DNA from: a virus
Lineage: Duplodnaviria; Caudoviricetes
Virus record (IMG/VR): IMGVR_UViG_3300032322_001005
Span: 1-61,603 of that record
Length of the DNA stretch: 61,603 bases
Direction: 5' to 3' (one strand)
Below are positions 2,856-54,602 of this stretch, piece by piece (the stretch's first letter is position 1; each line of letters begins with the position of its first letter). Both the position numbers and the translations under genes were made by a program. The notes beneath the pieces are model-generated. The model did no database searches and was not told the origin of the DNA. It was given only the letters and a program-made list of their open reading frames with translations.

Positions 2856-3211
2856 AATGCCCAGCATGTCGCGCCAAGCTACAGGTGAAGGAATCCCGCA
2901 GGCTGAAGGACGAACACGGCAACCAATTCATTCGCCGTATCCGCTTCTGCAAGAACGAACACCAATGCGTAACGCACGAAATGCTTGCGATACGCTCCCC
3001 CATCCCAGACACTTATCGTCCTAAAAGGGAAAGGGCAGAATACCAAAGGCAATGGAGACGGCTCAATCCCCCGAAGGAGAAACAGAAGAAGGAGTCGGAT
3101 TGGCTCGAAAAGATAAACGCAAAATTGGAGACTACCTCGCCCCAGACACGATCCTCGTTATCGTCGTCTGCATCATCTGTATCCTCTACCTTATCTTCTC
3201 GTGAAAGATAG
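2852..3211 (+). CDS. NrdR-like N-terminal zinc-ribbon protein
   Basis: KCPAC...VKESRR...IRRIRFC...THE pattern; GTGA overlap. Confidence 0.65.
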   Translation: MKCPACRAKLQVKESRRLKDEHGNQFIRRIRFCKNEHQCVTHEMLAIRSPIPDTYRPKRERAEYQRQWRRLNPPKEKQKKESDWLEKINAKLETTSPQTRSSLSSSASSVSSTLSSRER

Positions 3212-4064: not shown

Positions 4065-4291
4065 TCGACTTGTATACATTTATGGGGATAGACGATAACG
4101 GAGACCACAGAATATATGTATCTCCGTTCAGGCTCAACCATTTGAGCGACATGCACGAGCGGGACGATGCGTTTCCGGCTGGAGTCAAAGGAGCCATCCC
4201 TGAAGAGAAGTGTGTTGAAGCACTCCACAAGATAAGAAAGTATTACGATGATAACGAGAAAGGTCGGACTAAAAAGAGGAAGGCCGCTTAA
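4061..4291 (+). CDS. hypothetical protein
   Basis: GTG start overlapping the primase stop. Confidence 0.5.
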   Translation: MIDLYTFMGIDDNGDHRIYVSPFRLNHLSDMHERDDAFPAGVKGAIPEEKCVEALHKIRKYYDDNEKGRTKKRKAA

Positions 4292-4553
4292 AGCTAGGAA
4301 GGGACTGAACCGAGTCAGCAAGAAGCACAGGGCTGAACTCGCGGTCTATTCGGGTAAACGGAAAGCTTATCTTTTAAGCAATCCATGTTGCGATATCTGC
4401 GGTGTTGAAGCAACCGACATTCACCACAAGGCTAGACGCGGAAAGAATCTGAACAACGTAGAGACGTGGATGCCAGTATGTCGCCAGTGTCATCAATACA
4501 TCGAATCAAACGGCAAGTGGGCACGGGAACACGGCTACATAACACAGACTTGA
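4248..4553 (+). CDS. small HNH endonuclease-like protein
   Basis: CDICG...DIHH...N...CRQCH. Confidence 0.75.
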   Translation: MITRKVGLKRGRPLKARKGLNRVSKKHRAELAVYSGKRKAYLLSNPCCDICGVEATDIHHKARRGKNLNNVETWMPVCRQCHQYIESNGKWAREHGYITQT

Positions 4554-10741: not shown

Positions 10742-12061
10742 TTAAGTTCCCCTTGTGATTTCAACGGCATCCACCGAAGCAACCCAGCGCCATGTTTCGG
10801 AGGCGATGCCGGTGACCTCGATCTTAAGTGAATCATTTGTATCATCGGCTGTAAGCGAAATGCTTGTTCCAGCAGCGTTATCTGTTCCGATAGTCACTGG
10901 GGCGTAAACTTCCGTGGTTGTGCCAGTAACATTCTTCAAGCAATACTGGCGCAAGTAGTGTGCTACTGCGGAGCCGTCGCTCTTGACGCCAGAGATATTG
11001 ATCGTGCAGGCGAAGATTTTATTGGATGGGATCGTGAGGCGAACTGTTCCCGCAATTCCTTGCAAAGACAATTCAACTGGTGAGTTGGTGGTAGTTTTGT
11101 TACTTAAAACAAATCGAGCGCGCTGAGCATCGCCTTTTGCTGCAAACTGCCTTCCAGAATGGGCTTGCATTGAATATCTATCAGCCAAACCTTGGCACCC
11201 ACCAAGAATGGCTCCATATATGGCGGAAGTTTCGTTTTCATCTCCTGCGCCAATAAAAGAACGAGCATTTCCGCCGCCAGCTTTGTTGGTAGAACCAGCC
11301 GCAACAGCACTGTTGGTTTGTGCCTCATTAGATGCACCACCACCAACAAATCCTTGTTGTCCAGCCGTATTACTATTCCCACCAACAACGCTTCCGTCTG
11401 CGCCGCTGGCTGTATTATTTTGACCAGCGCCAATAAATGACCTTGCTCCAGAAGCAACTTGTGCCGCAGTTGATCGAACGGTTTGCCAATCCACGGCATT
11501 AGCTCCACGAGCGTTTCCGCCACTTGCCGCGCCGTTTGGCTTTTGGGCGAGCAGCGCCCCCGTGCCTTTCGGCGTGAGGACGAGGCTGGAGTTGGTTTGC
11601 CCGCTGTGTTGGTTGGTGATTGCGACATTGTTTTGAGTGCTTGTAGTTGCGTCATCTATAACAATGTCGCTGCCTTGTGCAGTATAGCCACCCGTGCTGT
11701 CTGCCCTAGGAATCGCATTATCAACCGTGCCGAGAGTTCCACCGATACCTGTGATGTTGCCTCCAGAAACCGTGATGCCTACGGGAGTCAATTGCTCCAT
11801 CACGCCTGTTCCCGCAGTGCTGCGGCCTACGATACGGTTGGTGGCGATGCTAGTAGAAATGTCGGGTGTGGCCCCACCGGAGCTACTCAAAGGAGCGGTA
11901 GCAGAAACAGATGTTACACCACCCGATGCGTTAAGTGTGGTTCCTGAAAGAGAAAGCCCGGTTCCCAGCGTGATCTCTTCAATCGCACCAGTCCCCGCAG
12001 TTCCGCGTCCCAACAGTTTGTTGGTCGCCATGATTGTCTTGCCCGAGCTTGTTCCGATCAT
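10742..12061 (-). CDS. tail fibre protein
   Basis: GRxTAGTG repeats, GGxxNxA beta-roll repeats and a C-terminal beta domain. Confidence 0.75.
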   Translation of the reverse strand: MIGTSSGKTIMATNKLLGRGTAGTGAIEEITLGTGLSLSGTTLNASGGVTSVSATAPLSSSGGATPDISTSIATNRIVGRSTAGTGVMEQLTPVGITVSGGNITGIGGTLGTVDNAIPRADSTGGYTAQGSDIVIDDATTSTQNNVAITNQHSGQTNSSLVLTPKGTGALLAQKPNGAASGGNARGANAVDWQTVRSTAAQVASGARSFIGAGQNNTASGADGSVVGGNSNTAGQQGFVGGGASNEAQTNSAVAAGSTNKAGGGNARSFIGAGDENETSAIYGAILGGCQGLADRYSMQAHSGRQFAAKGDAQRARFVLSNKTTTNSPVELSLQGIAGTVRLTIPSNKIFACTINISGVKSDGSAVAHYLRQYCLKNVTGTTTEVYAPVTIGTDNAAGTSISLTADDTNDSLKIEVTGIASETWRWVASVDAVEITRGT

Positions 12062-28526: not shown

Positions 28527-29152
28527 AACCCCTCCCGCTTCCAGCAGTGCGTAATTTGCCTAAAGTCGTTTTTGAGTTCATCATTTAGCCCGTTGTGTTG
28601 CACGTCGAGGGGAACGTGAACAGCGGACTTTAGCTCACAGGAGCATACAAGGCAAGCACCGAGAGCATAATCGTTCTTGGTTTTTCTGTCGCCTAGAACT
28701 CCGTGAATAAGCTTCATCACTCCTCCCATACACGCACCGCAGGAGAATTGGAGCGTAACGTTGTTCGGGCATCCCGCACAGATGTTCGCCCTGCGCTCTG
28801 CTTCCTCTTGCGAGACGAATGCAGCCCTGCCGTTCAAGACCTGCATCGCCCACGACTTGATCATATTCAAGAACGACAGCACAGCCTGCAACGAAAGCTT
28901 CCGGCGAACCACCTTGTCCAGCGAGACGGGATTGCAGAGCTTTCCCCACCCATTCTGGATGCACATCTCCGAGATTAACTCGTCCTCCCAGTCTCCCGTC
29001 AGAACGATATTGTTTGCCAAGCAATGATTCACATACGCTTTGATGAATGCTCGGTAATCATAATGTTTGAGAAGCAGTCCTGTAATAGGATGCTTGTAGC
29101 GCCACTCACCGGGGGGACACGTGGCCTTGTCCGTGTAGCGATATTGAACCAT
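28523..29152 (-). CDS. Cys-rich metal-binding protein
   Basis: RRANICAGCP, CGAC, CLVCSC, CW. Confidence 0.7.
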   Translation of the reverse strand: MVQYRYTDKATCPPGEWRYKHPITGLLLKHYDYRAFIKAYVNHCLANNIVLTGDWEDELISEMCIQNGWGKLCNPVSLDKVVRRKLSLQAVLSFLNMIKSWAMQVLNGRAAFVSQEEAERRANICAGCPNNVTLQFSCGACMGGVMKLIHGVLGDRKTKNDYALGACLVCSCELKSAVHVPLDVQHNGLNDELKNDFRQITHCWKREGL

Positions 29153-32100
29153 TACTTGTAAAGGTTCTGTAATCTCTTCTCTGCCTTCTCGCGTTCTTTG
29201 CCCTGCTCGATCACGTCTTTGTTCATCTGCCTAATCATCCTCGCAACGTCCGTGTCGTTCAAGCGCATTGTGTATAAAAGTTCGCTAACCCCAGCAACGA
29301 ACATTACCCTGCGCTCTTCAGGGGTCAACGTATCGGCAAGCTCTTGGCTGGACAATTCTTTAACCCGATCCGAAAGTTCTGCAAATTGCCCGGGCATGAT
29401 TTCCAGCATACCAAGATTTACTCCCGATCCTTTGCCAGTATAACGATACAAGAAAGCGCGGTCTTTCATGTATTTATCAAACGGCATTACCTCGCCGCTA
29501 TCATCCAGCGCATTTTCGTTTTCGATCTGCGATTCGATGATGTATTGCATGTAGTTGATTGAATCAATCGCTTTGCTTTCAAAAATCTCAGGGAAACCGC
29601 CCAAAACAATATTGGAAAACAATTCTGTCCTGAACTTGCGCCAGATCAAATTTGCTTCTTCTTTCTGCTTTTCTTCGTCGGGTTCGTCCATATCTACTCC
29701 TAGGAGCGCGTAGATAGTAGAAGCACCGAGTCCGTAAACAGCAGGCAGAAGGAATCTGCGAGCTGCATTGAATGTAATCATTCCAGCAATTGTTCCGCTA
29801 AGCCCCTTTGCCGCAGCTTTCCTTTGATCTGAATCGCCAAAGATTGCATCTCGCGCATCCGAAAACATGCGAAGTCTTTCTTGAAGAACGAACGAATAGA
29901 ATGGCATGAAGATCGCTTTGAATAGATTGGCGTATCCATTGTTACCCCTCTGCGATAGTTCTGCCATCCTTGTCGGGTCTGAAGAGCCTTGATACATGTC
30001 GATCATTTGTTCGGCATACATCGCAGCCTCAAGGCGAATCGGGTCGCTTTCAGCATTTAGTCTCGATTCGTTCTCCCATCCAGTAAACTCAACACCTTTG
30101 TCTTGAAGATACTTTCTGTAATAAGAAAGCCATCCAGAGCCAGCCGCCAAGAAGTCAGACTTTTTGAGTGCGTATAACCAAACATTGTTAAGGCGCTCTA
30201 CAGCATCAGATACAACTACCCATCTTCCGTCCTCGACAAATCTTTCAATCTTGCCGTAATTTCCTTCTGTTTGGTTAATCCACTTGGTTCCACCAGCAAT
30301 CTCGCCACGCTCTCCGATGGAGTATTGCCGCAGTAAACTCATGGCACCTTCGCTTGATAAGTCTCTCGTGCTTTCGGCAATCAACGCAGGGTCGCCTACA
30401 TTTGCCAACGTCGTAGCCATTTGCGAAGGATATTGCTTAAAGAATTGTCCGTATCCGCCGAGTGCAAGGCCGATGCCAAACCTGCGCGTAACGTTTGCAA
30501 TCGTGTTGGCAATCGCGCTACCTCCATCTCCGTCGTATGTTCTTGCTAGTGCGTTTGAAAGAACAGCGAGCCGCCTGTTAAGGAAATCAAGGTTCTCTGC
30601 GCCGCCAACAGCCTTCTCTGCATCTGGAGAGTCGAGGAACGCGATAATCTGTTGCCAAGCCGCGTTTGTATTCGCTTTGGAGATTTGATCTGAAAGCGAG
30701 TTGAGAACGTTTTTCGTAAGGTTGTAATCAATTACAGAATCTTTAGGAAGAACTGTAACCTTCTTGCGCTTAATTGAGTTCGCCGCTTGCTTTGGCTTGG
30801 AAACATCTTTTCCTGTTGTAATAACAACCTTGTCTGGTGGTTTTACCTTTGAACCGACCTGCCTATACCGAATTGGCAGGTAGTTCGGATTGTTGTAATT
30901 GTCGGTTTGATTATTAAACAATTCGTCATGTTCCTTTAACATCGGCTTATATTCTGGAAGAACCTGATCTTTTAAGAATATAAGTGCCTCGTAGTTCGCA
31001 ATGTGTGTTCTCTTTAGGTTTTCAAGAATACCCTGCACACTATCGGCATATACCTCATCCAATGCCTTTTTAATAAACGGAACGCTTTCTCTATCAGACC
31101 TTGATGGCGAGCGTTCTTTAACTGCTATATCCTCTTCGATAAGTTTTCTAATTCGCTGAATCCCTTCAGCCTCAGTCTCGTCTGGATCAATCTGAATAAG
31201 ATTTCCAGCTACCCCCATAGAGAACATTCCTTGTTTGTCGGAAATCTTTTGTTTTGTTTCGTCTTCAATCTGTAAATACCTTTCGCGTATACCGTCAGAT
31301 ATTTCGGCGTTGATTTTATTTGCCCTTGCTGTCCCTTTAGAAAGCCTTGCCATTCCCATTTGAACAAGAAGACGCGGCGCTCCATTTTTGCCAGCAATAT
31401 TGCGAAATGTGTCCGCAACAGACTGAACGCTAAGATTCAATGCACGACCAGTTCTTTCTCCAAGGAACGAGTTTAGGAAATTAAACATCGCCTCATTGCG
31501 TTTGATTTGGTTTGGGTCGTTTGCAGCTTCCGCCGCTCCCATTTGCCCCTTGGCTGTCGCTGAAAACTTCTGCGCTCCGAAAAAGTAATTGTTAACAAGA
31601 ATCGAGTTTGCCGCCCGAATAAACTCCTTACGCGCACCTACGTCCAACTGCGACAAATTAAGTCGCTTCATATCGTCAAGTATCTCTGTCGTATCGTCTG
31701 TCGGGTTTGGATTTTTGTAGTTTACCAAAGCGATCTGAGCTTCTTCAGAAATCTTGTTGATCGCAGCTTCAAGTGCCTCTGCTCGCTTTACTCGGCGTTC
31801 ATCACGAGCATCTTGCTTGCGGGCCTCGATCATGCTGGTGAATTCCTCTTCGGACATATCCAGCAAATCAACAGCCTCGTCTTCGGTGATACCTTCTCTT
31901 CCTAGCTCTTGAGACAATGCACGGAGATACAGTTGGCGCTCCGCTTCTTGGCGAGTAGCGTCTATCTCTGTATAAAGATCGTTGAGATAGCTCTGCATTT
32001 CTGCGTCTGGAATAACAACATAATCCTCCGCAGTCACAGGTCCATAGCCCTTCATATACTCGGTTAGAACTGCCGCAAACTCACCGGGGTTGTTTATCTC

Positions 32101-35100
32101 CCTAGGGTTGATTCCAGCGAACTCTTTCAGAACGTCTTTTACTGGTGCTGGGATATCTTTCTGTTTTGCTAGATTCTTTGCAGAGCTAATGGCTTTCTTC
32201 GCATCCGACACGTCCCTGTCGTAATTCGCGTTGTCGATTACCTTGTTCGCGTAGTTCAAGAACGAGAGGATGGACGCGTCGTTGTCGAAACGGACTTGCA
32301 TCGCCTTGTTGACGATAGCGCGAAGCTGCGGGGCTTTTACCCTACCGCGAATTGTTTCCTCGCGGAGTTGGGCTGTCAGGTCTTTTACGAACTCCTTCTG
32401 CTGCGCGGCATCCAGCCTGCGCTTCTTCGCCCCGAGTTTGAGTTGATCCTTCAACGCGGTCTTCTCGTTTATCGTTAACAAGTCACGCTTGCGCTTCACT
32501 CCAGTTGTCGCCTCGATCAATCGCTGGATTGTTGTTGGGCGTGGTTTCTTTTGCGGAGCCTCTGCGGCGGGTTCTACTGTAGGCTCGGCTTCTACTGCCG
32601 CCTCTGGTTCAGCCGCCATCCTAAATATTCCTGCATCCATCTCGCGGATGATTCGCTCTCCGCTCTGGAAGCGTTTAATCGCTGAAGAGAGGACTGCCTG
32701 CGCTCCTCGGTCTGTCAGCCTGAACTTGGTTCCGACCAGCCTGTTCAGCACAGCCTTTACGGCATTTACAAATCGCTCCCACTTCGGGGCGATCCTATTC
32801 TCTGCGATCAGCGTCCCGAATGCGCGGACTTGGTTCTCCTCCATCTGCACGGACTGAGACTCTTCCGAGTAGTGGCGGCGAATAATATCGTCTGCCTGCG
32901 CCTGTTGCTCTGGTGACAACGCGTTCCAAAACTCTTTAAACGCAGCCTGCACTTCAGGATCGCCGTAGACGAAGTGACCGAGTTCGTGCGCGATATTGTC
33001 TGCGATGTTGTCTTCTTTGGAGAGATACGCTTGGTTGAGGATAATCTGACCAGTCTCTAGGTTGTATCCCGCCTTGAAGCGATAGTCTGGGTCTGTGCTA
33101 TCGTTAACAATTGTGAGGTTCGCCGGGGCTTTTCCGCCGAAGAACTTCTTCGCCGCTACCAAGATTTGCTCGTATGTGTAGCGATTGCTTTCTTGAACTG
33201 GGCTTGGCTCAACCGCCATGTATCTTTGGTCTGGCCCGATTATTCCAGTTGGGCGGGCTTCCGTTTTGGGATTCTTAACAAATACGCGAGAGCCAACCAT
33301 TATTGCCTCATCGCCACCGACAACCGTCCTCTTACTTCTTACATCAATAAATTGGCTTGATCGTATCGGATTATAGCCAACCTCCGTCCACACATTCGGA
33401 TCGTTAATGTCGGCAGGGAGTTCAGCGATTGGCTCGTAGTTGCCCTTGACTGTAGCTAGTCGGAACTTGCCAGCACCCATTGCAATGGTTAGCGCCCCGC
33501 CTTCTCGCATGTTGCGAGTCATAAATCTTGGATTTGTAACTTTAGCTATGCCAGTAAATGCAACAACGTCTCCAATTTTTTTAGAATCATCGGCAACTGG
33601 AAGATGTGCCGTAATTGCATATACCGTGTCGCCTGCCTCTGTTGATTTGTTATAAGTTGGAATGTCTATTCTAAATTCATACTCGGAACCTTCTTGGAGG
33701 CGAGAATTCCCATTTTTGTCAAGCAATCCAACCTGATCAATTTTATTGCTCTGAATGTATTGTTTTATTTTTGCATCTGTCGGAATTGGGTCTGGCCCTT
33801 TGGCAACGAATGGGTCAAGCGCGCCTACCAAATTAGCATACTCATCAACAGTAATCTCCTTGTTCTTCATCCTTACCGCAGCGACAGCTAGTTGCGGGTT
33901 CCTAGCCATAACCCTGTTTGAAGATGCTTTATCAAATGCCGCCTGCTCTTCTTGGGTTCGCGGTTTTATCGCTTGCGGCTGAATCGCCATTCTCCGCACT
34001 CCTTTCGCCTTTACGGGCTTTACGTCGTTCTTCTCTACGACCTGCACCTCTCCGGTTCGCTCGTTCTTTACGGAGTAATACTGCTCTCCTAGATCGCGCT
34101 CTGTTGCTGTCTGCGGGATGACTTTTTCTACTACGTAGGTCTGCGGGCTTTTGCCGAGCTTGATGCGGTTGCCTACTGCGATTCCCTCTGGTGCTGCTTC
34201 TGGTGCGGGTGGAGTTGTTACAGCGGGGGCGACGGGTGCGGGTGCTGGCGCAGGGGCCGCTTGTATCTCCGCGACTCGCTCTGCTGGGGTGAGGCGAGGA
34301 AGAGGAGCTTGCGCTCTAGATAAAATAGCCTCTCCGTCTTGATTTATGACGGGCTGGCCTTTGATAATATCGACAAGCCCCGCTGCGGATAGCGCGGAAA
34401 TCTGTTCGCGTTTTGCCGTGTTTTCCGCTACAGAGCGCAAATTGTTTATTACTTGTGCATCGGCAGAAGTTATTGGTTCTGCTGCTACTGGCTGCGGGGC
34501 GGCTGCGGCTGGCTGGGCTGCTCGTTCTCTGCGCTCAAGCTCTTGGACGCCGGACTCAACTTCGCTAATAGTTTCTGGGAATGCGACAGCTTCGCCAGAA
34601 GGGCGAACCTCCCTGCGTAGCGAGGACTTGTATTGTTGGTATTTGGGGTTGCTTTCATAATTTGTGATGTCTTGGTCAATTAGCAGATATGGTTCAGCTA
34701 ATGCTTGTTTTTGCTCTTCGGATATCGGAAGTCTGTCAATAACTCGCAGTGCTGTATCAATCTGTCGATTTGCCACCTCGATCTGCTCTGGGCTGATCTG
34801 CGTGTAAAACTCTGGTGTGCTTGAGATTTTGACAGACCTCTTTCCCTCTTTAACCAATTTAGATTCGCCAACGTCAAATATGTCGGCAATCGCGTTAAGT
34901 GTTGGAGAGTTTTCAATTTCAATTAACGCCTGCGGAATTTCAAAATCGTCCTCTGTTGCGGCGATTTCTTCTTCTGTTACCTGAGGCTTGGATTCGATAA
35001 CCGACGCAACCTGTGGCAACGCAGGCTCGGCAGGAGCCTGTCTAGTCTGCCCTTTGCGAACCCACTCAACCCCTTCGATCTCGCTGATAGGTTGGTTGGG

Positions 35101-36768
35101 ATTTACTGGAACTTCATACTTTTCAGCGGTGGCGAACGGCCTGAATACCGTCACCCCATCTTCAACAGATATTGCTCCGCGCATTCCGTTGAATACGAAT
35201 GTGTCTTTGTCTCTGATTGATTCGGCTATGGTTCTTTGCGGAGCGGCAAGCTCTTCTGGAGCGGCAGGCGTAATGGGTGCGGCAGGTGCTGCTGGCTGCG
35301 TAACAGCCGCAACTGCGGGAGCTGCCTCTTCTACGGGTGGGACTGTAATCGGCGTGGGTGCTACCCCTGCACGGAACTCGGCAAGTGCGTCCAGCCCAGC
35401 TTGAGCGAATGCACGGGTATCCGCGTCTTCGCTTTCGAGTTCTTCGCGGAAGCCCCGCTCGGTCTGGGCGATAGACTCCGGCGACATTTTGGCGAAGGTT
35501 GTTTTGAACTCTTCTTTGGCGGGAACCTCGTATACCGTGGGCTTGGGTGCAAACTTCTCGCGCTCTTGCGCAAGTTCGGTTTCTGTCTGTTCGTTGGTCT
35601 GTTTCTCTTGCTGCAACGCATCCTTTGCTGAAGTAACCGTAACTGCCTGTGCAGTAAGGGGAGCGTTATTGTTTTCCAAGTTTGACGCAACCTTCGCGGC
35701 CTCTTGAAGTTGACGTTGTTTTCTACGCTCGGCAAATCCTTGTTGCACTTTACCGATTGCGATTTCCGCAGCACCCGGCCCGACCTCGCCAACGATTTCA
35801 GCAAACACATCCTTTGGTCTAATTTCTTCGCCAGCAGCAAGCGATCCAGCAACTTCACCACCGCCACCCAGAGCGGCTTGAATCGCTGTTTCTGCGGCGA
35901 CTTCACGCACTGGCGTCTTAAACGCAGCCTTGGTGATTTTAGCCACCTTACCGCCGATACCAGCGGATAGTGCATCAAACGCAGCGACAGGAACGCCTCG
36001 CTTGAGTGCTTTGTCTTTTGCCTCGTCAACCAGCTTTTGGTTGGAAAAGAATTCGGTGATGCTGTCTGGATTGTTTATGTCCATTCCTGCATTCTGTAGT
36101 TCCTCAAGCATCTTGCCGCCGTATTCGGTAGCCAGCGAACCAGCAAATGTTCCTGCAATCTGACCACCCAAGAATCCAGCGGGTGCCCCAATTACTGTAG
36201 GTGCGCCAATAGCAGCGCCAACCGTTCCAGCGGCAAGACCAGTGCCCAATGCTGGAAGATTTCCAGAAAGACCCTCTGCGACGATATTTGTCGTAACCTC
36301 AAACGGATTGGTGACAAACGCCTTTACCGCATCCATTCCTTCGGCATCCTGATACGCCTTGTAGTCGGGCGATACCTCTCGTGCCTTTTTTTCAAATTCC
36401 AACTTAGAGATTTCTTTTGCTTCCTCTGGAGTTACGCCTCCGACTGTTTTGATCGCTTGTTGGGATGAGGCAAAAGCGTTCTGTGCCGCGTTGGCGATTC
36501 CTTCAAATACACCAACCTCTGGCTTTAGCTTCCTTTTGGAAAGTTGACCAAAATCAGCAAACTCTTCCTCGTCGCCATACTCTTTGGCTTTCTGATTATA
36601 CCATCCTGTAAACCCAGAAGCGAACTCCTCGTCACGATACAGTCCTTGCTGCATGGCGCGGTCAACCGCAGTCCTGCTCCACTTGCCAAAGTAATCTTTC
36701 TTCTTTGCCGTGTCTAAAGACTGAAATTCAGGATCGGATTCTACTTCTTTCCAAGTCGGAAACCTCAT
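29152..36768 (-). CDS. giant internal virion/DNA-ejection protein (polyvalent type) with a zincin HExxH domain
   Basis: About 2540 aa; Gly/Ala-rich hydrophobic N-terminal segment; AHELGH at 32974-32988; helical C-terminus; likely start MRFPTW at 36768. Confidence 0.75.
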   Translation of the reverse strand: MRFPTWKEVESDPEFQSLDTAKKKDYFGKWSRTAVDRAMQQGLYRDEEFASGFTGWYNQKAKEYGDEEEFADFGQLSKRKLKPEVGVFEGIANAAQNAFASSQQAIKTVGGVTPEEAKEISKLEFEKKAREVSPDYKAYQDAEGMDAVKAFVTNPFEVTTNIVAEGLSGNLPALGTGLAAGTVGAAIGAPTVIGAPAGFLGGQIAGTFAGSLATEYGGKMLEELQNAGMDINNPDSITEFFSNQKLVDEAKDKALKRGVPVAAFDALSAGIGGKVAKITKAAFKTPVREVAAETAIQAALGGGGEVAGSLAAGEEIRPKDVFAEIVGEVGPGAAEIAIGKVQQGFAERRKQRQLQEAAKVASNLENNNAPLTAQAVTVTSAKDALQQEKQTNEQTETELAQEREKFAPKPTVYEVPAKEEFKTTFAKMSPESIAQTERGFREELESEDADTRAFAQAGLDALAEFRAGVAPTPITVPPVEEAAPAVAAVTQPAAPAAPITPAAPEELAAPQRTIAESIRDKDTFVFNGMRGAISVEDGVTVFRPFATAEKYEVPVNPNQPISEIEGVEWVRKGQTRQAPAEPALPQVASVIESKPQVTEEEIAATEDDFEIPQALIEIENSPTLNAIADIFDVGESKLVKEGKRSVKISSTPEFYTQISPEQIEVANRQIDTALRVIDRLPISEEQKQALAEPYLLIDQDITNYESNPKYQQYKSSLRREVRPSGEAVAFPETISEVESGVQELERRERAAQPAAAAPQPVAAEPITSADAQVINNLRSVAENTAKREQISALSAAGLVDIIKGQPVINQDGEAILSRAQAPLPRLTPAERVAEIQAAPAPAPAPVAPAVTTPPAPEAAPEGIAVGNRIKLGKSPQTYVVEKVIPQTATERDLGEQYYSVKNERTGEVQVVEKNDVKPVKAKGVRRMAIQPQAIKPRTQEEQAAFDKASSNRVMARNPQLAVAAVRMKNKEITVDEYANLVGALDPFVAKGPDPIPTDAKIKQYIQSNKIDQVGLLDKNGNSRLQEGSEYEFRIDIPTYNKSTEAGDTVYAITAHLPVADDSKKIGDVVAFTGIAKVTNPRFMTRNMREGGALTIAMGAGKFRLATVKGNYEPIAELPADINDPNVWTEVGYNPIRSSQFIDVRSKRTVVGGDEAIMVGSRVFVKNPKTEARPTGIIGPDQRYMAVEPSPVQESNRYTYEQILVAAKKFFGGKAPANLTIVNDSTDPDYRFKAGYNLETGQIILNQAYLSKEDNIADNIAHELGHFVYGDPEVQAAFKEFWNALSPEQQAQADDIIRRHYSEESQSVQMEENQVRAFGTLIAENRIAPKWERFVNAVKAVLNRLVGTKFRLTDRGAQAVLSSAIKRFQSGERIIREMDAGIFRMAAEPEAAVEAEPTVEPAAEAPQKKPRPTTIQRLIEATTGVKRKRDLLTINEKTALKDQLKLGAKKRRLDAAQQKEFVKDLTAQLREETIRGRVKAPQLRAIVNKAMQVRFDNDASILSFLNYANKVIDNANYDRDVSDAKKAISSAKNLAKQKDIPAPVKDVLKEFAGINPREINNPGEFAAVLTEYMKGYGPVTAEDYVVIPDAEMQSYLNDLYTEIDATRQEAERQLYLRALSQELGREGITEDEAVDLLDMSEEEFTSMIEARKQDARDERRVKRAEALEAAINKISEEAQIALVNYKNPNPTDDTTEILDDMKRLNLSQLDVGARKEFIRAANSILVNNYFFGAQKFSATAKGQMGAAEAANDPNQIKRNEAMFNFLNSFLGERTGRALNLSVQSVADTFRNIAGKNGAPRLLVQMGMARLSKGTARANKINAEISDGIRERYLQIEDETKQKISDKQGMFSMGVAGNLIQIDPDETEAEGIQRIRKLIEEDIAVKERSPSRSDRESVPFIKKALDEVYADSVQGILENLKRTHIANYEALIFLKDQVLPEYKPMLKEHDELFNNQTDNYNNPNYLPIRYRQVGSKVKPPDKVVITTGKDVSKPKQAANSIKRKKVTVLPKDSVIDYNLTKNVLNSLSDQISKANTNAAWQQIIAFLDSPDAEKAVGGAENLDFLNRRLAVLSNALARTYDGDGGSAIANTIANVTRRFGIGLALGGYGQFFKQYPSQMATTLANVGDPALIAESTRDLSSEGAMSLLRQYSIGERGEIAGGTKWINQTEGNYGKIERFVEDGRWVVVSDAVERLNNVWLYALKKSDFLAAGSGWLSYYRKYLQDKGVEFTGWENESRLNAESDPIRLEAAMYAEQMIDMYQGSSDPTRMAELSQRGNNGYANLFKAIFMPFYSFVLQERLRMFSDARDAIFGDSDQRKAAAKGLSGTIAGMITFNAARRFLLPAVYGLGASTIYALLGVDMDEPDEEKQKEEANLIWRKFRTELFSNIVLGGFPEIFESKAIDSINYMQYIIESQIENENALDDSGEVMPFDKYMKDRAFLYRYTGKGSGVNLGMLEIMPGQFAELSDRVKELSSQELADTLTPEERRVMFVAGVSELLYTMRLNDTDVARMIRQMNKDVIEQGKEREKAEKRLQNLYK

Positions 36769-36812
36769 AGCGGTCAACTATACAGCAATGGTTATTGTTT
36801 CCAAGAACTTTA

Positions 36813-48158: not shown

Positions 48159-48170
48159 AATTTATTGTGT

Positions 48171-48617
48171 ATGAGTGTAAAAGTTCTGTCGGAGGTATTC
48201 GACAAAAGCCTTACGAGCGGCAATGCGAGGCTTGTGCTTCTCGCGTTGGCTGACTGTGCAAGCGAAGATGGGGCATGCTGGCCTTCGCTGCGGAAACTGA
48301 AAAAGAAATCAGGCGTATCTGAAGAAACAGTTCGCAAGTATCTCCACGCTTTTGAGGCAATCGGGCTTATCTCTTCTGAAGAGCGATATGATGTTGGAGG
48401 AAGGCGAACATCCAACGTCTATACAATCAACCTCGAAATGCTCGGAAGGGATTCGCCGGAGCATAAAACCTTGTATTCTGTCATACCGAAAAGCAAAAGG
48501 CGGGGGAGGGGTAGGTATGAACCAGTTCAGAGGGGGGTAGGTATGAACATGTTCATAGGGGGTAGGTATGAACCAGTTCATAGGGTCTATAATGAACCGT
48601 CTATAGAACCGTTATAA
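48171..48617 (+). CDS. HTH (HTH_36-like) replication-initiator-like protein, short
   Basis: MSVKV...ARLVLLALAD.A...G.CWPS...SGVSE.TV...GLI...SNVY. Confidence 0.8.
   Translation: MSVKVLSEVFDKSLTSGNARLVLLALADCASEDGACWPSLRKLKKKSGVSEETVRKYLHAFEAIGLISSEERYDVGGRRTSNVYTINLEMLGRDSPEHKTLYSVIPKSKRRGRGRYEPVQRGVGMNMFIGGRYEPVHRVYNEPSIEPL
48508..48580. repeat. iterons (3 x GGGGTAGGTATGAACnnGTTCA)
   Basis: Period 25-26 bp; each copy has a TGAAC-nn-GTTCA palindrome. Confidence 0.8.
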
Positions 48618-48659
48618 AGAACCGTCATGTTGCTTTTGTTGTTTTGAAAGGATAATCGC

Positions 48660-49358
48660 ATGGGATACACAAATAAGATCGGCAGGAGAGATCGCCGAAA
48701 GATAAAAAAGATCGGCAAATTCAAGATGACTCGCTGGGAGTATCGCAATGAGTATCTGAAGTCGCCGGAGTGGCAGGCACTACGCGAATCGTTTTTGAGG
48801 TCGCATAGCGGACTTTGCGAACGATGCGGAAAGCCCGGCTGCGATGTTCACCACACAGCATACAAGTTCAAAGAAACCGAGTGGGAACAGAAACAGCGAT
48901 TGATGCTTCTTTGCAGAAGCTGTCACAACACGGTTCACAAAGCGATAAACTGCAAACTCCTTTGGTTTCCGCACCACAAAGAGGATGTTATTGCGCTGAC
49001 AGATGATGCTCTAAAGAGGCGATTGAGTAGATCGAAAAAGAAAGAACTTGTTCCAATGATGCTGATTAGCAACATCGTTAAGAACGGAACTTCGCATGGT
49101 ATCTGCTTGGCGTGTGCCAAGCTAAAGATAACACAAAGCACGTTTTGCTCGATTCCAGCAAACCTAAAGGCGACTCAAGCACAGATTGATTACTTGCGAT
49201 GGGTGGAAAAGACAAGGCCGACCAAAGACGGCTGGAAATACAAGAACAACAAAAAACAAACCAAGAAGAGTGCGAAAGAAAAAGAAAAGCTACGCAAACT
49301 AAAGATAAGCCTCGGATTACGAAGTGCTAATGTTCAAGAAGACCTTTGCCCGTTTTGA
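48660..49358 (+). CDS. HNH endonuclease
   Basis: EYLKSPEW...CERC...DVHH..Y...LCRSCH. Confidence 0.8.
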   Translation: MGYTNKIGRRDRRKIKKIGKFKMTRWEYRNEYLKSPEWQALRESFLRSHSGLCERCGKPGCDVHHTAYKFKETEWEQKQRLMLLCRSCHNTVHKAINCKLLWFPHHKEDVIALTDDALKRRLSRSKKKELVPMMLISNIVKNGTSHGICLACAKLKITQSTFCSIPANLKATQAQIDYLRWVEKTRPTKDGWKYKNNKKQTKKSAKEKEKLRKLKISLGLRSANVQEDLCPF

Positions 49359-49417
49359 TGCAAAGCGTATGACGTTTGACAAAAATGTATACACTTTGGA
49401 AAATCTATTAACAAAAC

Positions 49418-49819
49418 ATGCGATACGAAGAATACGCTTTAAGCATTGCCGAGACGGTAGCGCAGAAGAGCAAAGACCCTTGGAGGAAGGTGGGTGCCTG
49501 TATCCTGCGGCACGACAACTCGATTGCTTCTGTAGGGTATAACGGGTTTCCGGCAGGTATGACTGAGGATTGGTCAGACCGCGAGGAAAGGAGGCTGTTC
49601 GTCGTGCATGCCGAGCAGAATGCTCTGCGATATATCAGACCTGAAGAGTGCGGGCTAATCGCCGTTACGACGCTACCCTGCAATGATTGCCTGAAAGCGA
49701 TTGCCTCCTACGGCATCAAGCGAATCGTTTACCGCGATTGTTACGAACGAGATTCTTCCAGCGAGCGGATTGCCGAGAAGTTCGGCATCGAACTAATCCA
49801 ACTTCCTACTGCGAGTTGA
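49418..49819 (+). CDS. dCMP deaminase
   Basis: SKDP..KVGA, GYNG, HAEQNA, PCNDC. Confidence 0.9.
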   Translation: MRYEEYALSIAETVAQKSKDPWRKVGACILRHDNSIASVGYNGFPAGMTEDWSDREERRLFVVHAEQNALRYIRPEECGLIAVTTLPCNDCLKAIASYGIKRIVYRDCYERDSSSERIAEKFGIELIQLPTAS

Positions 49820-50810: not shown

Positions 50811-52079
50811 ATGAACACCAACCTACCCGCCGATCTGGCGTCGGAGCAGGGATTCCTATGCTCCGTCATTACAAACCCGAAGATAATCGACAAGTCCGTT
50901 GACCGCGTAACCGAAGAGCATTTCACTTCCTTCGGCAACCGCGAAATCTGGAAGGCTACGTTAGCCCTGTGGCAAGAAAGGCGGGCCGTAGACCCGATTA
51001 CTGTAGCAGGAAGTCTTGAGAAGGCTGGCGTATTTGAAGAAGCTGGGGGGAAAGAGTATTTAACCCAAACCGTAGAGTATTGCCTTACGCCTTCGCATTG
51101 GAAAGAATACCTGCAAAATATCCACGAGTGCTTTGTTCGTAGAAAGATACACGCCGCAGCACAGAAGATGATCGAAGGTGCGCTCGACAAAGGAAAGAAG
51201 ATCGAAGAACTGCAAGAGAATGCGAGTAAGGATATTGTCTCGCTAAGTGCGACAAATGCCGAGAACCGTCACATATCGGCGGTTCTGAGCAATTGTATTA
51301 CGAGGTGGGAGGAGGCAGCAAACTCTGGAGGTGCGGTTAATCGCGGGCACGAGTCTGGGATCAGCAGGTGGGATCACGCGACCAGAGGATTCAGACCAAG
51401 AACCCTGCACGTTATTGCGGGTGCGGCTAAAGCAGGCAAGACTACTTCTGCCTTGCAGATGGTAACGAATCCAGCTTTCGAGAAAAACGTTCCTATTGCC
51501 TTGATCTCGATGGAGATGGGCGCGGAAGAACTGCTCGACAAGTATATCGCGCAGAAAGCCAAGGTGAATATCTCCGATCTACTGGACGGAAGGCTGGATC
51601 ATGGAGCGCACGAGAGGATGTCACAAGTTATCGCTAAATCTTCCAAACTACCAATTTACATCGCAGACGAGGCGTGTATGACAGTGACGCAATTCAAGGC
51701 GAGATGCAGGAGGCTCGTGTCCGAGAACAAGGTAGAGATCATCATGGTCGACTACGCCCAGTTGATGGAGGCATCCGGCGATCCCAAGAATAGAGAGCGC
51801 GAGGTGGCAGAGGTAAGCAGAACGGCGAAGATTCTCGCCAAAGAACTGAATGTCTGTATTGTCCTTCTGGCCCAGCTAAACGACAACGGAGCCGTCCGCG
51901 AGTCGAGGACATTCTACATGGACTGCGACTCTTTTACAAAAGTCCACAAAGACGAGGAGAATACAGACCCGTATGCTTATTGTCTAACAATAACCCACAA
52001 CCGACACGGAGCTACAACAATGGTTCCCGTCAGGTTCGTGAAGTCCCAAGCCAGATTTGAGGAGGCCAGTTATGAATAG
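50811..52079 (+). CDS. dnaB: DnaB-like replicative helicase
   Basis: N-terminal EQGFL domain; AGAAKAGKTT; ISMEM; VDYAQLM; LAQLN; NRHG. Confidence 0.9.
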   Translation: MNTNLPADLASEQGFLCSVITNPKIIDKSVDRVTEEHFTSFGNREIWKATLALWQERRAVDPITVAGSLEKAGVFEEAGGKEYLTQTVEYCLTPSHWKEYLQNIHECFVRRKIHAAAQKMIEGALDKGKKIEELQENASKDIVSLSATNAENRHISAVLSNCITRWEEAANSGGAVNRGHESGISRWDHATRGFRPRTLHVIAGAAKAGKTTSALQMVTNPAFEKNVPIALISMEMGAEELLDKYIAQKAKVNISDLLDGRLDHGAHERMSQVIAKSSKLPIYIADEACMTVTQFKARCRRLVSENKVEIIMVDYAQLMEASGDPKNREREVAEVSRTAKILAKELNVCIVLLAQLNDNGAVRESRTFYMDCDSFTKVHKDEENTDPYAYCLTITHNRHGATTMVPVRFVKSQARFEEASYE

Positions 52080-52311
52080 AATAGAAGAAACGCTGGCGAT
52101 GATGGAGCTTGTATATCGCTGTGAGACACTTGAAAGGGAAAGAGACGAGTGGAGAGAGTGCTGCGAGAGGATGCTTTGGTCTGCACCAGCGGCGTTTGCA
52201 AACAATATCGAGTGGCTTAAAGCCATGCTTCTCGCAAAGAAACTTATAGAAAAACAACTTGCTACAAGAAAAGTAAATGCGATTCTAGAAGAGAAGAAAA
52301 CTGATCTTTGA
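52072..52311 (+). CDS. hypothetical protein
   Basis: LERERDE motif as in 1830..2087. Confidence 0.55.
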   Translation: MNRIEETLAMMELVYRCETLERERDEWRECCERMLWSAPAAFANNIEWLKAMLLAKKLIEKQLATRKVNAILEEKKTDL

Positions 52312-52320
52312 AACATTTTA

Positions 52321-52662
52321 GGACAATTCCGAACGGTTCGATGCGCGTCTCCAAGGCGCGGGCATAACCGAAGAGGATAAAGTCCACCCCGTTCCTATGC
52401 CGGACGATGCAAATGCCGACTGCCCAAAATTGAGGACAGGGCTATGCAAAGCGTGATGCGGCAACGCTTCTGGATTCTGGAAGAGCATCACGGCGGGGAA
52501 AAGAATTTGCGGTGGAGCATTGAGGGCGGCACGCTAATTGGTCGTAGCTCTAGGGAGGTAGAACGGCATCCGCATGGTTGACCACTACCCTTACTTGGCG
52601 CATTCGTGCGTTATTTTCCAAGGAAAAGCATAGAGCAGCCGAGCGACCTGAACTCCACCGCA
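52321..52662 (+). ncRNA. candidate large structured RNA
   Basis: Intergenic; many nested stems; GCAA and TTCG tetraloops on the plus strand. Confidence 0.5.
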
Positions 52663-52766
52663 CCACTTTTTGTTTAGAAATCGCTGTATAGTTCAAGCAA
52701 AACTTGAGTTGCAGCGTAAATACCAAACATATTGCGCTAGACGAGAAATAAGGTAAGATAGATCGC

Positions 52767-52994
52767 GTGACCGCAGAAGAAACAATCTCCAAGTTCAAGC
52801 AAGCCTACGAAGAGGCAATCGAAGAGAACAAGCTCCTGCACGACGAGGCGGTAGAAATGGCGCAGGAGATCGAGGAGTTGGAGCAAGAGTTGCAACTCGC
52901 GGAGTCCGACATGCAGATCATCCTCTCGGAGATGGGGCGTCAGGGACTGGATATGCAGTTCGTTTCGCGGTTAAGGAAGGTAGTCGAGGAATGA
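52767..52994 (+). CDS. coiled-coil hypothetical protein
   Basis: GTG 7 nt after TTGCGC-16-TAAGAT. Confidence 0.6.
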   Translation: MTAEETISKFKQAYEEAIEENKLLHDEAVEMAQEIEELEQELQLAESDMQIILSEMGRQGLDMQFVSRLRKVVEE

Positions 52995-53215
52995 AAAAAG
53001 CGGCAAAATCTGCCCACCAGAGTCATACCCCCGAAGAGGGTGATTCAAATATCATACCCGAAAGCGAAAGTGCTGTAGAGACATTCCTCCAAATTATCGG
53101 TATGATTAAGCCGCATAAAACAGAGATCAACCTGATTTTCGAGCAGGACTTCCTCTACGAACTCGCGGAAGAAGTCAAAGAACTCGCGGAGTCCTCCAGA
53201 GCAATCCTCCGCTAG
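52991..53215 (+). CDS. hypothetical protein
   Basis: ATGA-coupled. Confidence 0.55.
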   Translation: MKKAAKSAHQSHTPEEGDSNIIPESESAVETFLQIIGMIKPHKTEINLIFEQDFLYELAEEVKELAESSRAILR

Positions 53216-53219
53216 GAAC

Positions 53220-54060
53220 ACACAGGTATATCAGGGATACCAAAAGCGAACCCTACACCGAACGGGTATAGAGTCGCAGAGAAGGGTAGGAATAGCAGTA
53301 GATCGGGTATACAGAAAAGCTTCGTAAAAGCCCGCTATTCGCGTTAGGGTAGCCAAACCGAGCAAAGTATCGGAAAGAAGAAGAAAACTCGCTGTAGAGG
53401 CTATAAACGCAAAAGAGAGGCTGGCTATACAGTGGGAGAGAGTCGTGTTTCGATAGGCAACAAATACACGAGTGGTGTCGCTATACAAGCAACGTAGTGA
53501 GTAACAAATAGTTAGGCGTATAGTATAGGCATAGATGTAGAGTTTGTGTAGAGATAATTTTTAATTTTTAATTTTGATTCGGGAATTTAAATTTTGATTT
53601 TCCCCTAGGTCGTTTTTTTACCCTGCGGCGCCGTGCCAAGTCCCCCTCCCCCTACCACGGGTGGCGTGTGGTGTGCTGCTGCCGCTCCGTCACTCCGCCC
53701 GCCGCTCTACCCTACCGCCCGCCCCGCTTGGCATGGTGCGGTGCCTCTCATGTGGTGCGGTGTGCGGTGCGGTGCCTGCCATGCTTGGCCTTGTGTGGTG
53801 CGCTGCCAGTCTCAACAATAGCGGCTGCCTTACCTTGTGCGATGGGCCGCGCTTGCCTAACCCGTTGATGCTGTGTCGCGCTACACTATAACATGATATA
53901 AACAGCAATAGTCGATAGCTGAACATTGCGCGAGGATGCCCGTAGAATGCGCGAAACGATTGGCAAGGGGTAGCATAGCGGGGCAAATTGCGATGCAATA
54001 GCGGGGCGATTAGCGCGAAGGAATAGGCAATGCGAGATGCTGGCCTGATATCACCGGAGC
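53220..54060. other. long non-coding region, candidate genome terminus/packaging region
   Basis: Purine-skewed segment, T-tracts at 53556-53619, C-run and a GT-rich low-complexity tract. Confidence 0.4.
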
Positions 54061-54079
54061 GAATCACCTTGCGCGAAGG

Positions 54080-54334
54080 TTGGCATGAAAGATGCTGCGC
54101 ATTTCCGCAAGGCTATGCAAAAGCGCAACTTGCAAAAGGCATGGCAAGAATTGCACGGAAAGCGGCAACCTTTGCCGGGTAAATCCTGCCTACCGGAAGA
54201 AATTGCCATTTCGGAAAGGTGTTGCGTTTGCGGAGCTTATGGCTTGGCATGGGAGATGCTGCGCAATTTCGTTGCGTAAGTGCTTGAAATTGCACCTTGC
54301 CATTGCCTTGGCAACACTTGGCATGGCGAATGCT
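54080..54334 (+). promoter_or_regulatory. three sigma54-type (-24/-12) promoter motifs TTGGCATG-N4-ATGCT
   Basis: 54080-54096, 54244-54260 and 54318-54334, all with GG-N10-GC spacing. Confidence 0.6.
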
Positions 54335-54386
54335 ATGTATTTTGCCAAGCGGGGGAACCCGTCAAACACCAAACCAAACCAAACCA

Positions 54387-54602
54387 ATGATCATCGAAAC
54401 CAAAGAACAGTTCGCAATATTCAGAATCCTTCAGCTTCGCGCCGCTCTCCGTTTGGAGTGTGCGGGAATGCGTCATTCAAGCGGAAGATCGGTTGCCAAG
54501 CTAATCAAGCAACAGTACGGATTTAAGGGGAGCAAGCAAGCCATACTGGAACAGCTTTGCGCACATATCGAAGCTATCAAGGCGGGGGAGGCTACCGCTT
54601 AA
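54387..54602 (+). CDS. early hypothetical protein
   Basis: MIIETKEQ...ALRLECAGM..S.GRS..K; (AAACC)n leader. Confidence 0.65.
   Translation: MIIETKEQFAIFRILQLRAALRLECAGMRHSSGRSVAKLIKQQYGFKGSKQAILEQLCAHIEAIKAGEATA

Follow-up and report, generated by a model that had tools for sequence, protein, structure and literature searches.

The put antiterminator RNAs of phage HK022 are about 70 nucleotides (nt) long, consist of two hairpins, occur in two copies per genome and act in cis. The late leader pR'-tR' of phage lambda is also cis-acting; an intrinsic terminator comes next, and the late genes after that. Only few large structured RNAs are known from phages, and GOLLD and ROOL are still without a known function or protein partner, according to the accessible part of the report on them (10.1101/2024.12.08.627333). 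In the accessible text of the respective sources, the abiF RNA is described as the antitoxin of the AbiF/Abi_2 HEPN ribonuclease in a toxin-antitoxin system of type III for abortive infection (10.1101/2025.04.15.648962; PMC12737573; PMC13064643), and RCd22, which contains abiF motifs, as controlling the read-through to its downstream gene (10.1101/2025.04.15.648962). The pseudo-ToxI of phage PhiTE is presented there as a non-coding mimic of an antitoxin RNA, by which an abortive-infection ribonuclease is neutralised (PMC3475682). The element discussed here is found within the 61,603 bases of an IMG/VR virus record (IMGVR_UViG_3300032322_001005; the whole stretch is referred to as the window), where it is flanked on the 5' side by a small open reading frame (ORF) that follows the DnaB helicase gene, and on the 3' side by the next small ORF. 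It could be confirmed that positions 52302-52719 of the window form a real non-coding RNA locus, built from independently conserved folded modules on the plus strand.

A sequence-only reading of this DNA had proposed one intergenic RNA of about 340 nt with three domains (D1, D2 and D3, Table 1) at 52321-52662. The structured, multi-domain and intergenic character was borne out. The idea of a single RNA was not, as the modules are separable, and the extent had to be revised: the conserved unit is longer and runs from 52302 to about 52719, because close relatives diverge there. The helices quoted in that reading are all present at the positions given for them, and the minimum free energy (MFE) fold reproduces the three domains and adds a 3' hairpin. 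In the full-length fold, a short motif at the 5' boundary pairs with 52671-52683, a 3' segment that is present only in near-identical copies. The folding energy is better than that of dinucleotide shuffles, modestly so, with a z-score of -1.94 for the whole 364 nt (3 of 100 shuffles equally good) and of -2.13 for 421 nt (2 of 100). For the minus strand, z amounts to -0.77 (whole stretch) and -1.50 (D3). Energy gives modest support, and the case is weak on energy alone. The comparative evidence, in the form of covariation, argues strongly for the structure.

D3 is the most conserved module, with about 60 invariant nucleotides. Its architecture comprises an interrupted closing helix of 15 base pairs (bp), a four-bp helix, a local hairpin and a multiloop with two variable arms, and the nested helices GCTCTA/TAGAGC, GGTAG/CTACC and CTTGG/CCAAG are part of it. 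The fold of D3 has a z-score of -2.26 (5 of 200 shuffles as good). Relatives were collected from the loci around helicase relatives with nhmmer, followed by pattern scans of viral and metagenome sequences that were filtered by a covariance model of D3 (R1). Seven of the 15 loci from a first 16-mer scan were discarded as chance matches; three of the 15 from a second scan and 41 of the 46 metagenome pattern loci were not confirmed by the D3 model. R1 recognised 21 D3 copies in phage and metagenome contigs, 18 of them distinct. D2 and D3 occur together in four close relatives and twice in the single contig L003, and L006 contains D3 alone, nearly invariant although its helicase is just 62% identical.

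In the R1-fitted alignment, which leans toward the model, 96.4% of 840 cells are paired, versus 33-42% when the partners are slid by one to three columns. Changes on both sides are seen at 14 pairs, a value reached by 0 of 500 shuffles, with the qualification that D3 diversity is limited to about six lineages and that relatedness inflates such statistics. Because the fitted alignment leans to the model, the 17 distinct D3 sequences were realigned freely with MAFFT and folded with RNAalifold. The same architecture was obtained, with 41 pairs of which 10 are compensatory. When pseudoknots were searched for by all-against-all column-pair covariation, the signal was swamped by relatedness. The consensus does not contain the GGTCG/CGACC pair of the sequence-only reading. 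A local hairpin (ACG...CGU) together with AGG/CCU and CGGC/GCCG takes its place, and L110, the sole sequence in which GGTCG is changed, keeps the hairpin and not the quoted pair. Of the tetraloops that had been named, GCAA lies in internal loops or junctions, while UUCG does form a tetraloop in the window but is GAAA or a longer insert in relatives.

In D2, the CGTGATGC/GCATCACG helix is accompanied by an invariant strand (CCCGUUCYUAUGYCRGACGA) and a conserved hairpin (CGUGAUGC...GGCAA...GCAUCACG). The middle hairpin is variable or absent among the copies, and the shortest form of D2 has 74 nt. Compared to shuffles, the D2 fold reaches a z-score of -1.53 (16 of 200 as good). A 20-base pattern derived from the invariant 5' strand was found at 22 viral loci. 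Of these, 12 are new, among which only L262 has D3; D2 without D3 is found in L255-L261 and L263-L266. Compensatory changes are seen at 8 of the 16 pairs in the consensus of 22 distinct D2 sequences. The covariance model of D2 (R2) scores 119 bits in the window and finds no D2 copy in 24 other loci, five of which have D3 without D2. By this distribution, D2 is an independent motif and the more widespread one. The D2 of L261 is a divergent copy. About 30 nt past it (2944-3062, minus strand), at least six tandem copies of CAAGTCACCGGA extend over about 90 nt, and part of the D2 3' strand is repeated after them.

The MFE of D1 is -24.3 kcal/mol, with a z-score of -2.59 (2 of 200 shuffles as good). 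With nhmmer, D1 was also found in L004, L101, L044, L009, L012 and L015, the last three of which belong to more distant phages and match neither R2 nor R1. Its consensus has 15 pairs, two of them with changes on both sides (GC/CG to AU/UA). The nhmmer search in relatives, proposed as a check by the sequence-only reading, hence shows the region to be conserved in pieces, with compensatory changes in all three domains.

The plus strand had been suggested before and is favoured here on several grounds. In the D3 helices, 37 G-U cells are counted versus 11 A-C cells, and the z-scores are better for the plus strand. In relatives, tRNA-Met and tRNA-Cys (transfer RNAs) are same-strand neighbours beside D3, and abiF hairpins with U-tracts as well as downstream terminators agree with this orientation. 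Likewise, the earlier statement that the stretch holds no credible ORF was upheld. None of the reading frames is open throughout all 16 D3 homologues examined, and the element is therefore considered non-coding. In the window, D3 has at least one stop in each of the six frames. The D3 copies differ by indels of 1, 5 and 7 nt, which are not multiples of three, and an ORF of 82 amino acids (aa) on the minus strand (52550-52798) has no Pfam or PHROG match.

The family had not been recognised by the sequence-only reading, and it is not recognised by Rfam 15 either: with its 4227 models, no match at gathering score was found in the whole window. In permissive scans, the best score in the element was 12.9 bits (cow-rumen-1, cut-off 53.4 bits), and nothing exceeded 19 bits within 51800-54400. 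The Rfam 15 models of GOLLD, ROOL, riboswitches, ribozymes, RNase P, transfer-messenger RNA (tmRNA), 6S RNA and group I/II introns have no match in the window. By these scans, the element belongs to neither the GOLLD, the ROOL nor the abiF family. A likeness of GAGGAUAAAGUCC to the P4 strand of RNase P was dropped, since the motif is not conserved among the copies and no RNase P model matches. A self-splicing intron, a self-cleaving ribozyme or another mobile RNA element could be considered, given the HNH endonuclease genes elsewhere in the genome and the varied places in which the element occurs. However, the models of group I and group II introns and of small ribozymes give no match, and self-cleavage is unsupported by any ribozyme family match. 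The element lies within no ORF, and its flanks are separate ORFs with their own stop (before) and start (after) rather than two halves of one gene. A mobile RNA of this kind is extremely improbable.

Conservation of the array starts with the boundary motif. Of the 17 copies examined, 16 have GATC[TA][TA]T ahead of their first RNA module, with (A/C)(C/T)TGATCTTT as the consensus of the array start. The sequences 5' of the motif are unrelated, and the motif lies at the very end of whichever ORF precedes it, in differing frames; in the window, the stop codon of the upstream small ORF lies inside it (52309-52311). The motif is a candidate start or processing site. As TGATCTTT occurs four times in the window, which equals the chance expectation, it is not regarded as a general promoter. 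At the other end, the 3' hairpin (z-score -3.64, 1 of 200 shuffles as good) is common to the window, L101, L003a, L002, L004 and L109, and the sequences diverge past it.

A further conserved segment, module X, begins with GGCAGGYAGGTG and has a long-range closing helix followed by a U-tract. Depending on the phage, it is located 3' of D3, D2 or D1, and 5' of the tail-fibre-like gene described below. It follows D3 in L006, L026, L040, L045 and L120, and is joined directly to D1 in L012 and L009. The combinations (Table 1) show the modules to be autonomous and shuffled between phages. Two arrays deserve mention for their tRNAs. In L120 (249-323), tRNA-Met abuts the 5' end of D3, in the position of D2 in other arrays. 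In L044 (3138-3210), tRNA-Cys lies between the abiF hairpin and the tail-fibre-like gene, and L263 apparently has the same tRNA-Cys after X (by eye).

Several relatives contain a terminator-like hairpin 5-6 nt past D3 that matches the Rfam abiF RNA (RF03085) on the same strand. A hairpin was counted as abiF when it had 37 nt, the loop GCCUCUYAACRAUGC and at least 37 bits, the cut-off. The scores are 44.4 bits for L042 and L044, and 43.0 bits for L003b, L032 and L039; the hairpins of L038 and L101 remain below the cut-off with 36.2 bits. In L101, which is otherwise window-like, the abiF hairpin is placed between D3 and the 3' hairpin. An Abi_2 (PF07751) toxin gene was found neither in the window nor in any of the five related phage records searched at E <= 0.01, and the hairpins are therefore called orphan. 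The loop pattern by itself was observed at 118 or more loci in viral contigs (L132-L249). An ORF of at least 100 aa starts within 600 nt downstream at 75 of these, and encodes Abi_2 in only one case (L209), with crude ORF picking that covered the downstream side only. At the remaining loci, terminase small subunits, HNH, integrase and portal are among the products encoded. Orphan abiF hairpins often carry a U-tract and may serve phages widely as terminators or as decoys against AbiF.

D3 is absent from all six related phage records inspected, four of which are at least 99% complete, and is present in four other records, one of them with two copies. The element is therefore accessory and horizontally exchanged. 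This exchange could also be read at the level of DNA, with the element as a homologous-recombination site for swapping host-range or structural cassettes and with incidental RNA folding. In L003, two direct D2-D3 copies (91% identical over 222 nt) flank a tail-fibre-like block of about 2.7 kilobases (kb). L004 and L109 correspond to the window with an additional 1.75-kb cassette, placed exactly between 52721 and 52764; their synteny with the window is lost exactly where the array has its 3' end. The D3 core is nearly identical across phages whose helicases are 57-62% identical. In one lake run (X3), the summed depth of the contigs is about 20 times higher over both conserved ends of D3 (about 230 at 52503-52533 and 220 at 52627-52657) than in the flanks (about 11), which indicates that many co-occurring lake variants share those ends. 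However, neither the pair-preserving compensatory changes nor the excess of G-U over A-C would be expected from a DNA linker, and the conserved single-stranded junction nucleotides are not explained by it. A linker role may hold alongside an RNA function, yet it leaves the structure unexplained; on its own it is very unlikely.

The reading that is preferred, albeit tentatively and at somewhat less than even confidence, is that of an accessory and horizontally exchanged array of phage non-coding RNA modules, which acts as a stable RNA in trans on a conserved partner. Transcription of the array would either include the replication-module genes upstream or start at the boundary motif, and the transcript would end at the 3' hairpin or at a terminator. 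It would then accumulate as a stable structured RNA, whose near-invariant D3 core would bind the conserved partner in trans. Most likely, the array would serve as a decoy or sponge for a host RNA-binding factor, such as an abortive-infection ribonuclease, by a mechanism modelled on pseudo-ToxI versus ToxN and on the abiF hairpin versus AbiF. A stable trans-acting array is favoured because the modules are autonomous and co-located with tRNAs and an orphan antitoxin RNA, and because the element is dispensable in relatives and the D3 pairs are kept without a downstream gene. The latter is seen in L042 and L047, where the array, closed by a terminator, is met by a convergent terminase gene and no co-oriented gene lies downstream. 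As D3 there differs from that of L044 by pair-preserving changes, it is taken to be independent of the gene downstream.

Several observations weigh against this reading, in addition to the leaning of the fitted alignment and the limited diversity of D3 mentioned above. The window copy has neither an abiF hairpin (Rfam scans) nor a tRNA, and the link to anti-defence is therefore guilt by association in relatives. None of 38 bacterial or archaeal hits was confirmed as D3 in 185,579 species genomes (strict 22-base gapped pattern, which diverged copies could escape), so there is no host RNA in hand for D3 to mimic. No RNA run was found to contain 52100-53000; of four runs inspected, three are DNA contigs, and the one possible RNA run covers 52851-53000 only, outside the element. 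Furthermore, tail-fibre-like or head-protease-like genes follow 14 of the 21 D3 copies directly and in the same orientation, which fits a cis-acting leader, and the copies in head operons leave just 25-30 nt or so between the terminator and the start codon.

The main rival is a leader or antiterminator acting in cis on phage late operons. Here, a late promoter or entry point would be formed by the boundary motif, a long structured 5' leader by D1-D3, and a regulated terminator by the hairpin with its U-tract past D3. Such a leader might work by processive antitermination (HK022 put), as a platform for an antiterminator protein (lambda pR'-tR') or by riboswitch-like sensing, with the window copy as a leader that has lost its cassette. 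In 8 of the 21 D3 copies, the next gene is close by on the same strand and starts with M(P/A)SPDRHF. It is labelled tail-fibre-like, because the C-terminal part of its product is 60% identical to the window ORF 10742-12061, which adjoins ORFs with tail-fibre PHROG matches, and because a match to a virion structural protein was obtained for its partner in L004. The label is thus inferred. In another 6 of the 21, the next gene is head-maturation-protease-like (phrog_7015, E 1e-5, a weak match), again close by on the same strand. A hairpin with a U-tract is placed between D3 and the start codon, which leaves too little space there for a promoter. In L003, each of two structural gene blocks is preceded by one copy, and in L004 and L109 the tail-fibre-like cassette is directly 3' of the array. 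The combination of invariant nucleotides at the junctions and variable arms at the periphery is typical of aptamers and of RNAs that bind polymerase, and the abiF-motif RNA RCd22 governs read-through into its downstream gene, going by the accessible text of the source (10.1101/2025.04.15.648962).

A leader is harder to reconcile with L042 and L047, and with the copies of the window and L006, which are followed by small non-structural ORFs (three further copies end with the contig). The modules occur single or recombined, and D2 alone is found 5' of unrelated genes in distant phages. Moreover, tRNA genes lie inside the array, and related phages, complete ones included, are without the element. 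The boundary motif is beside no other operon of the window, and a scan for sigma-70 promoters and terminators yielded nothing at the element, with no sigma-70-like promoter nearby. A cis-acting leader is therefore regarded as possible but rather doubtful. The reading of a stable array that acts in trans may also be carried further, to an 'anti-defence RNA island'. Here, D1, D2, D3, X, the orphan AbiF-antitoxin hairpins and the tRNAs would be autonomous RNAs, each countering a different RNA-binding or tRNA-cleaving abortive-infection system and exchanged together with tail-fibre cassettes, and D2 and D3 would be the first of new classes of RNA antitoxin mimics. In this extended form, the proposal is unlikely.

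The phage record has an estimated completeness of 90% and a GC content of 49%. No tRNA or tmRNA gene was detected in the window with ARAGORN. A blastn search of 52250-52800 against 50,697 phage records returned no match, and the isolate matches of the terminase and helicase are all below 30% identity, from distant relatives only; the phage is without cultured relatives. The sequencing runs that contain about half of the window's sampled words (20 runs, 16 studies) are mostly lake-water or freshwater metagenomes by label. The RNA locus is part of a plus-strand block of replication genes, with an O-like initiator fragment, an HNH endonuclease, a dCMP deaminase and the DnaB-like helicase. Small ORFs homologous to the upstream small ORF are likewise 5' of the element in L003 and L006. 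The downstream small ORF is 82-85% identical at the nucleotide level in L004 and L109, where the tail-fibre-like cassette separates its counterpart from the RNA array.

Some further observations concern the remainder of the genome. Within 48165-49819, the O-like initiator has just 150 aa (the N-terminal helix-turn-helix part) and is followed by the HNH endonuclease gene and the dCMP deaminase; it may have been truncated or split through insertion of the endonuclease. The large genes of the phage are mostly without a family, and an ORF of 2541 aa on the minus strand (29152-36777) has no PHROG match at E <= 1e-5. The segment 53216-54091 (about 870 nt) has no convincing ORF. It contains an AT-rich stretch with three TAATTTT and further TTTTGATT repeats (53555-53600), 3' of which the GC content is 62-68% and a GTGCGGT-rich unit of 31 nt is present in 2.4 copies (53734-53807). 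The segment may contain an origin of replication or else be a packaging or end region.

Table 1. Positions of the RNA modules, neighbouring genes and examples in relatives, and composition of the arrays (positions without a locus prefix refer to the window)
Feature	Position	Strand	Remarks
5' boundary motif TGATCTTTGA	52302..52311	+	onset of the conservation of the RNA array
Domain 1 (D1): long hairpin, optional module	52321..52385	+	MFE fold and recurrence
Domain 2 (D2): junction	52386..52500	+	closed by CCCCG 52387-52391 / CGGGG 52494-52498
Domain 3 (D3)	52508..52662	+	closed by TGCGGTGGAG 52508-52517 / CTCCACCGCA 52653-52662
3' hairpin CGCUGUA...UGCAGCG, no U-tract	52682..52716	+	end of the conserved unit
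DnaB-like helicase gene	50811-52079	+	matches Pfam DnaB/DnaB_C and phrog_19
Upstream small ORF	52072..52311 (ATG 52072; listed from TTG 52057)	+	directly 3' of the DnaB-like helicase gene
Downstream small ORF	52767..52994	+	GTG start, 75 aa, no family match
HNH endonuclease genes	48660-49358 and 4248-4553		
Module X, examples	L045:200-810 (minus), L012:5400-5560, L255:7224-7480		
abiF hairpins	L003:8046-8082, L042:6613-6649, L044:3218-3254		
Array D1-D2-D3-hairpin			window, L004
Array short D1-D2-D3-hairpin			L003a, L002, L109
Array D1-D2-D3-abiF hairpin-hairpin			L101
Array D2-D3-abiF hairpin			L003b, L032, L038, L039, L042, L262
Array D1-D2-D3-abiF hairpin-tRNA-Cys			L044
Array D2-D3-X			L045
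Array D3-X			L026, L040
Array tRNA-Met-D3-X			L120
Array D2-X			L255, L264, L265
Array D2-another domain-X, then tRNA-Cys-like sequence (by eye)			L263
Array D1-X			L012, L009

Overall, the evidence for the structure is solid, and the modular behaviour and the link to abiF are unusual. With D2 and D3, at least two new and well-supported motifs come from this locus, in addition to D1 and module X. The modules behave as interchangeable parts of one array, located at the border of host-range or head gene blocks, and in relatives this array houses tRNAs and an orphan antitoxin RNA. This raises the questions of whether the array protects against AbiF-type or other abortive infection and whether it controls the read-through into late genes. 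If the pattern of orphan abiF hairpins holds up, an RNA-based evasion of AbiF may be widespread.

In the literature on phage abiF motifs and structured phage RNAs, no description of the D1-D3 motifs was found; subscription papers and supplements were largely outside this search, and an earlier description is possible. Like the put RNAs of HK022 and the pR'-tR' leader of lambda, the element is located before terminators and long operons, and L003 has two copies, as has HK022. Unlike the put RNAs, it is four times larger, modular, absent from relatives and, in one context, without a downstream gene. The abiF RNA and the element are both phage-borne structured RNAs with a terminator in relatives, whereas D1-D3 are unlike the 37-nt abiF motif. 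Pseudo-ToxI, as described in the accessible text, is a tandem 36-nt repeat and a sequence relative of the host ToxI, whereas D1-D3 are without repeats and have no known host counterpart (PMC3475682).

The comparison with GOLLD and ROOL raises one more explanation, namely a self-contained 'ornate' RNA of this type from a tRNA-island-like locus, which would for example multimerise or bind ribosomes or tRNAs and would not be a decoy. Neither GOLLD, ROOL nor another Rfam family is matched by cmscan, permissive scans included. The element has about 280-420 nt versus 580 to more than 800 nt, and its domains are separable, recombined and found apart, unlike a single cooperative fold. An RNA of this type is therefore judged decidedly improbable. 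As a structured phage non-coding RNA, the element nevertheless behaves most like these two, going by the accessible part of the report on them (10.1101/2024.12.08.627333). All are phage-encoded, occur in lake or environmental metagenomes and are found beside tRNA genes; here, one member has tRNA-Met directly upstream, and another has tRNA-Cys downstream. All show elaborate multi-domain folds with covariation. Finally, GOLLD combines a conserved 3' region with a variable 5' region, and the element is similar in this respect, as its 3' domain is universally conserved and its 5' part is variable.

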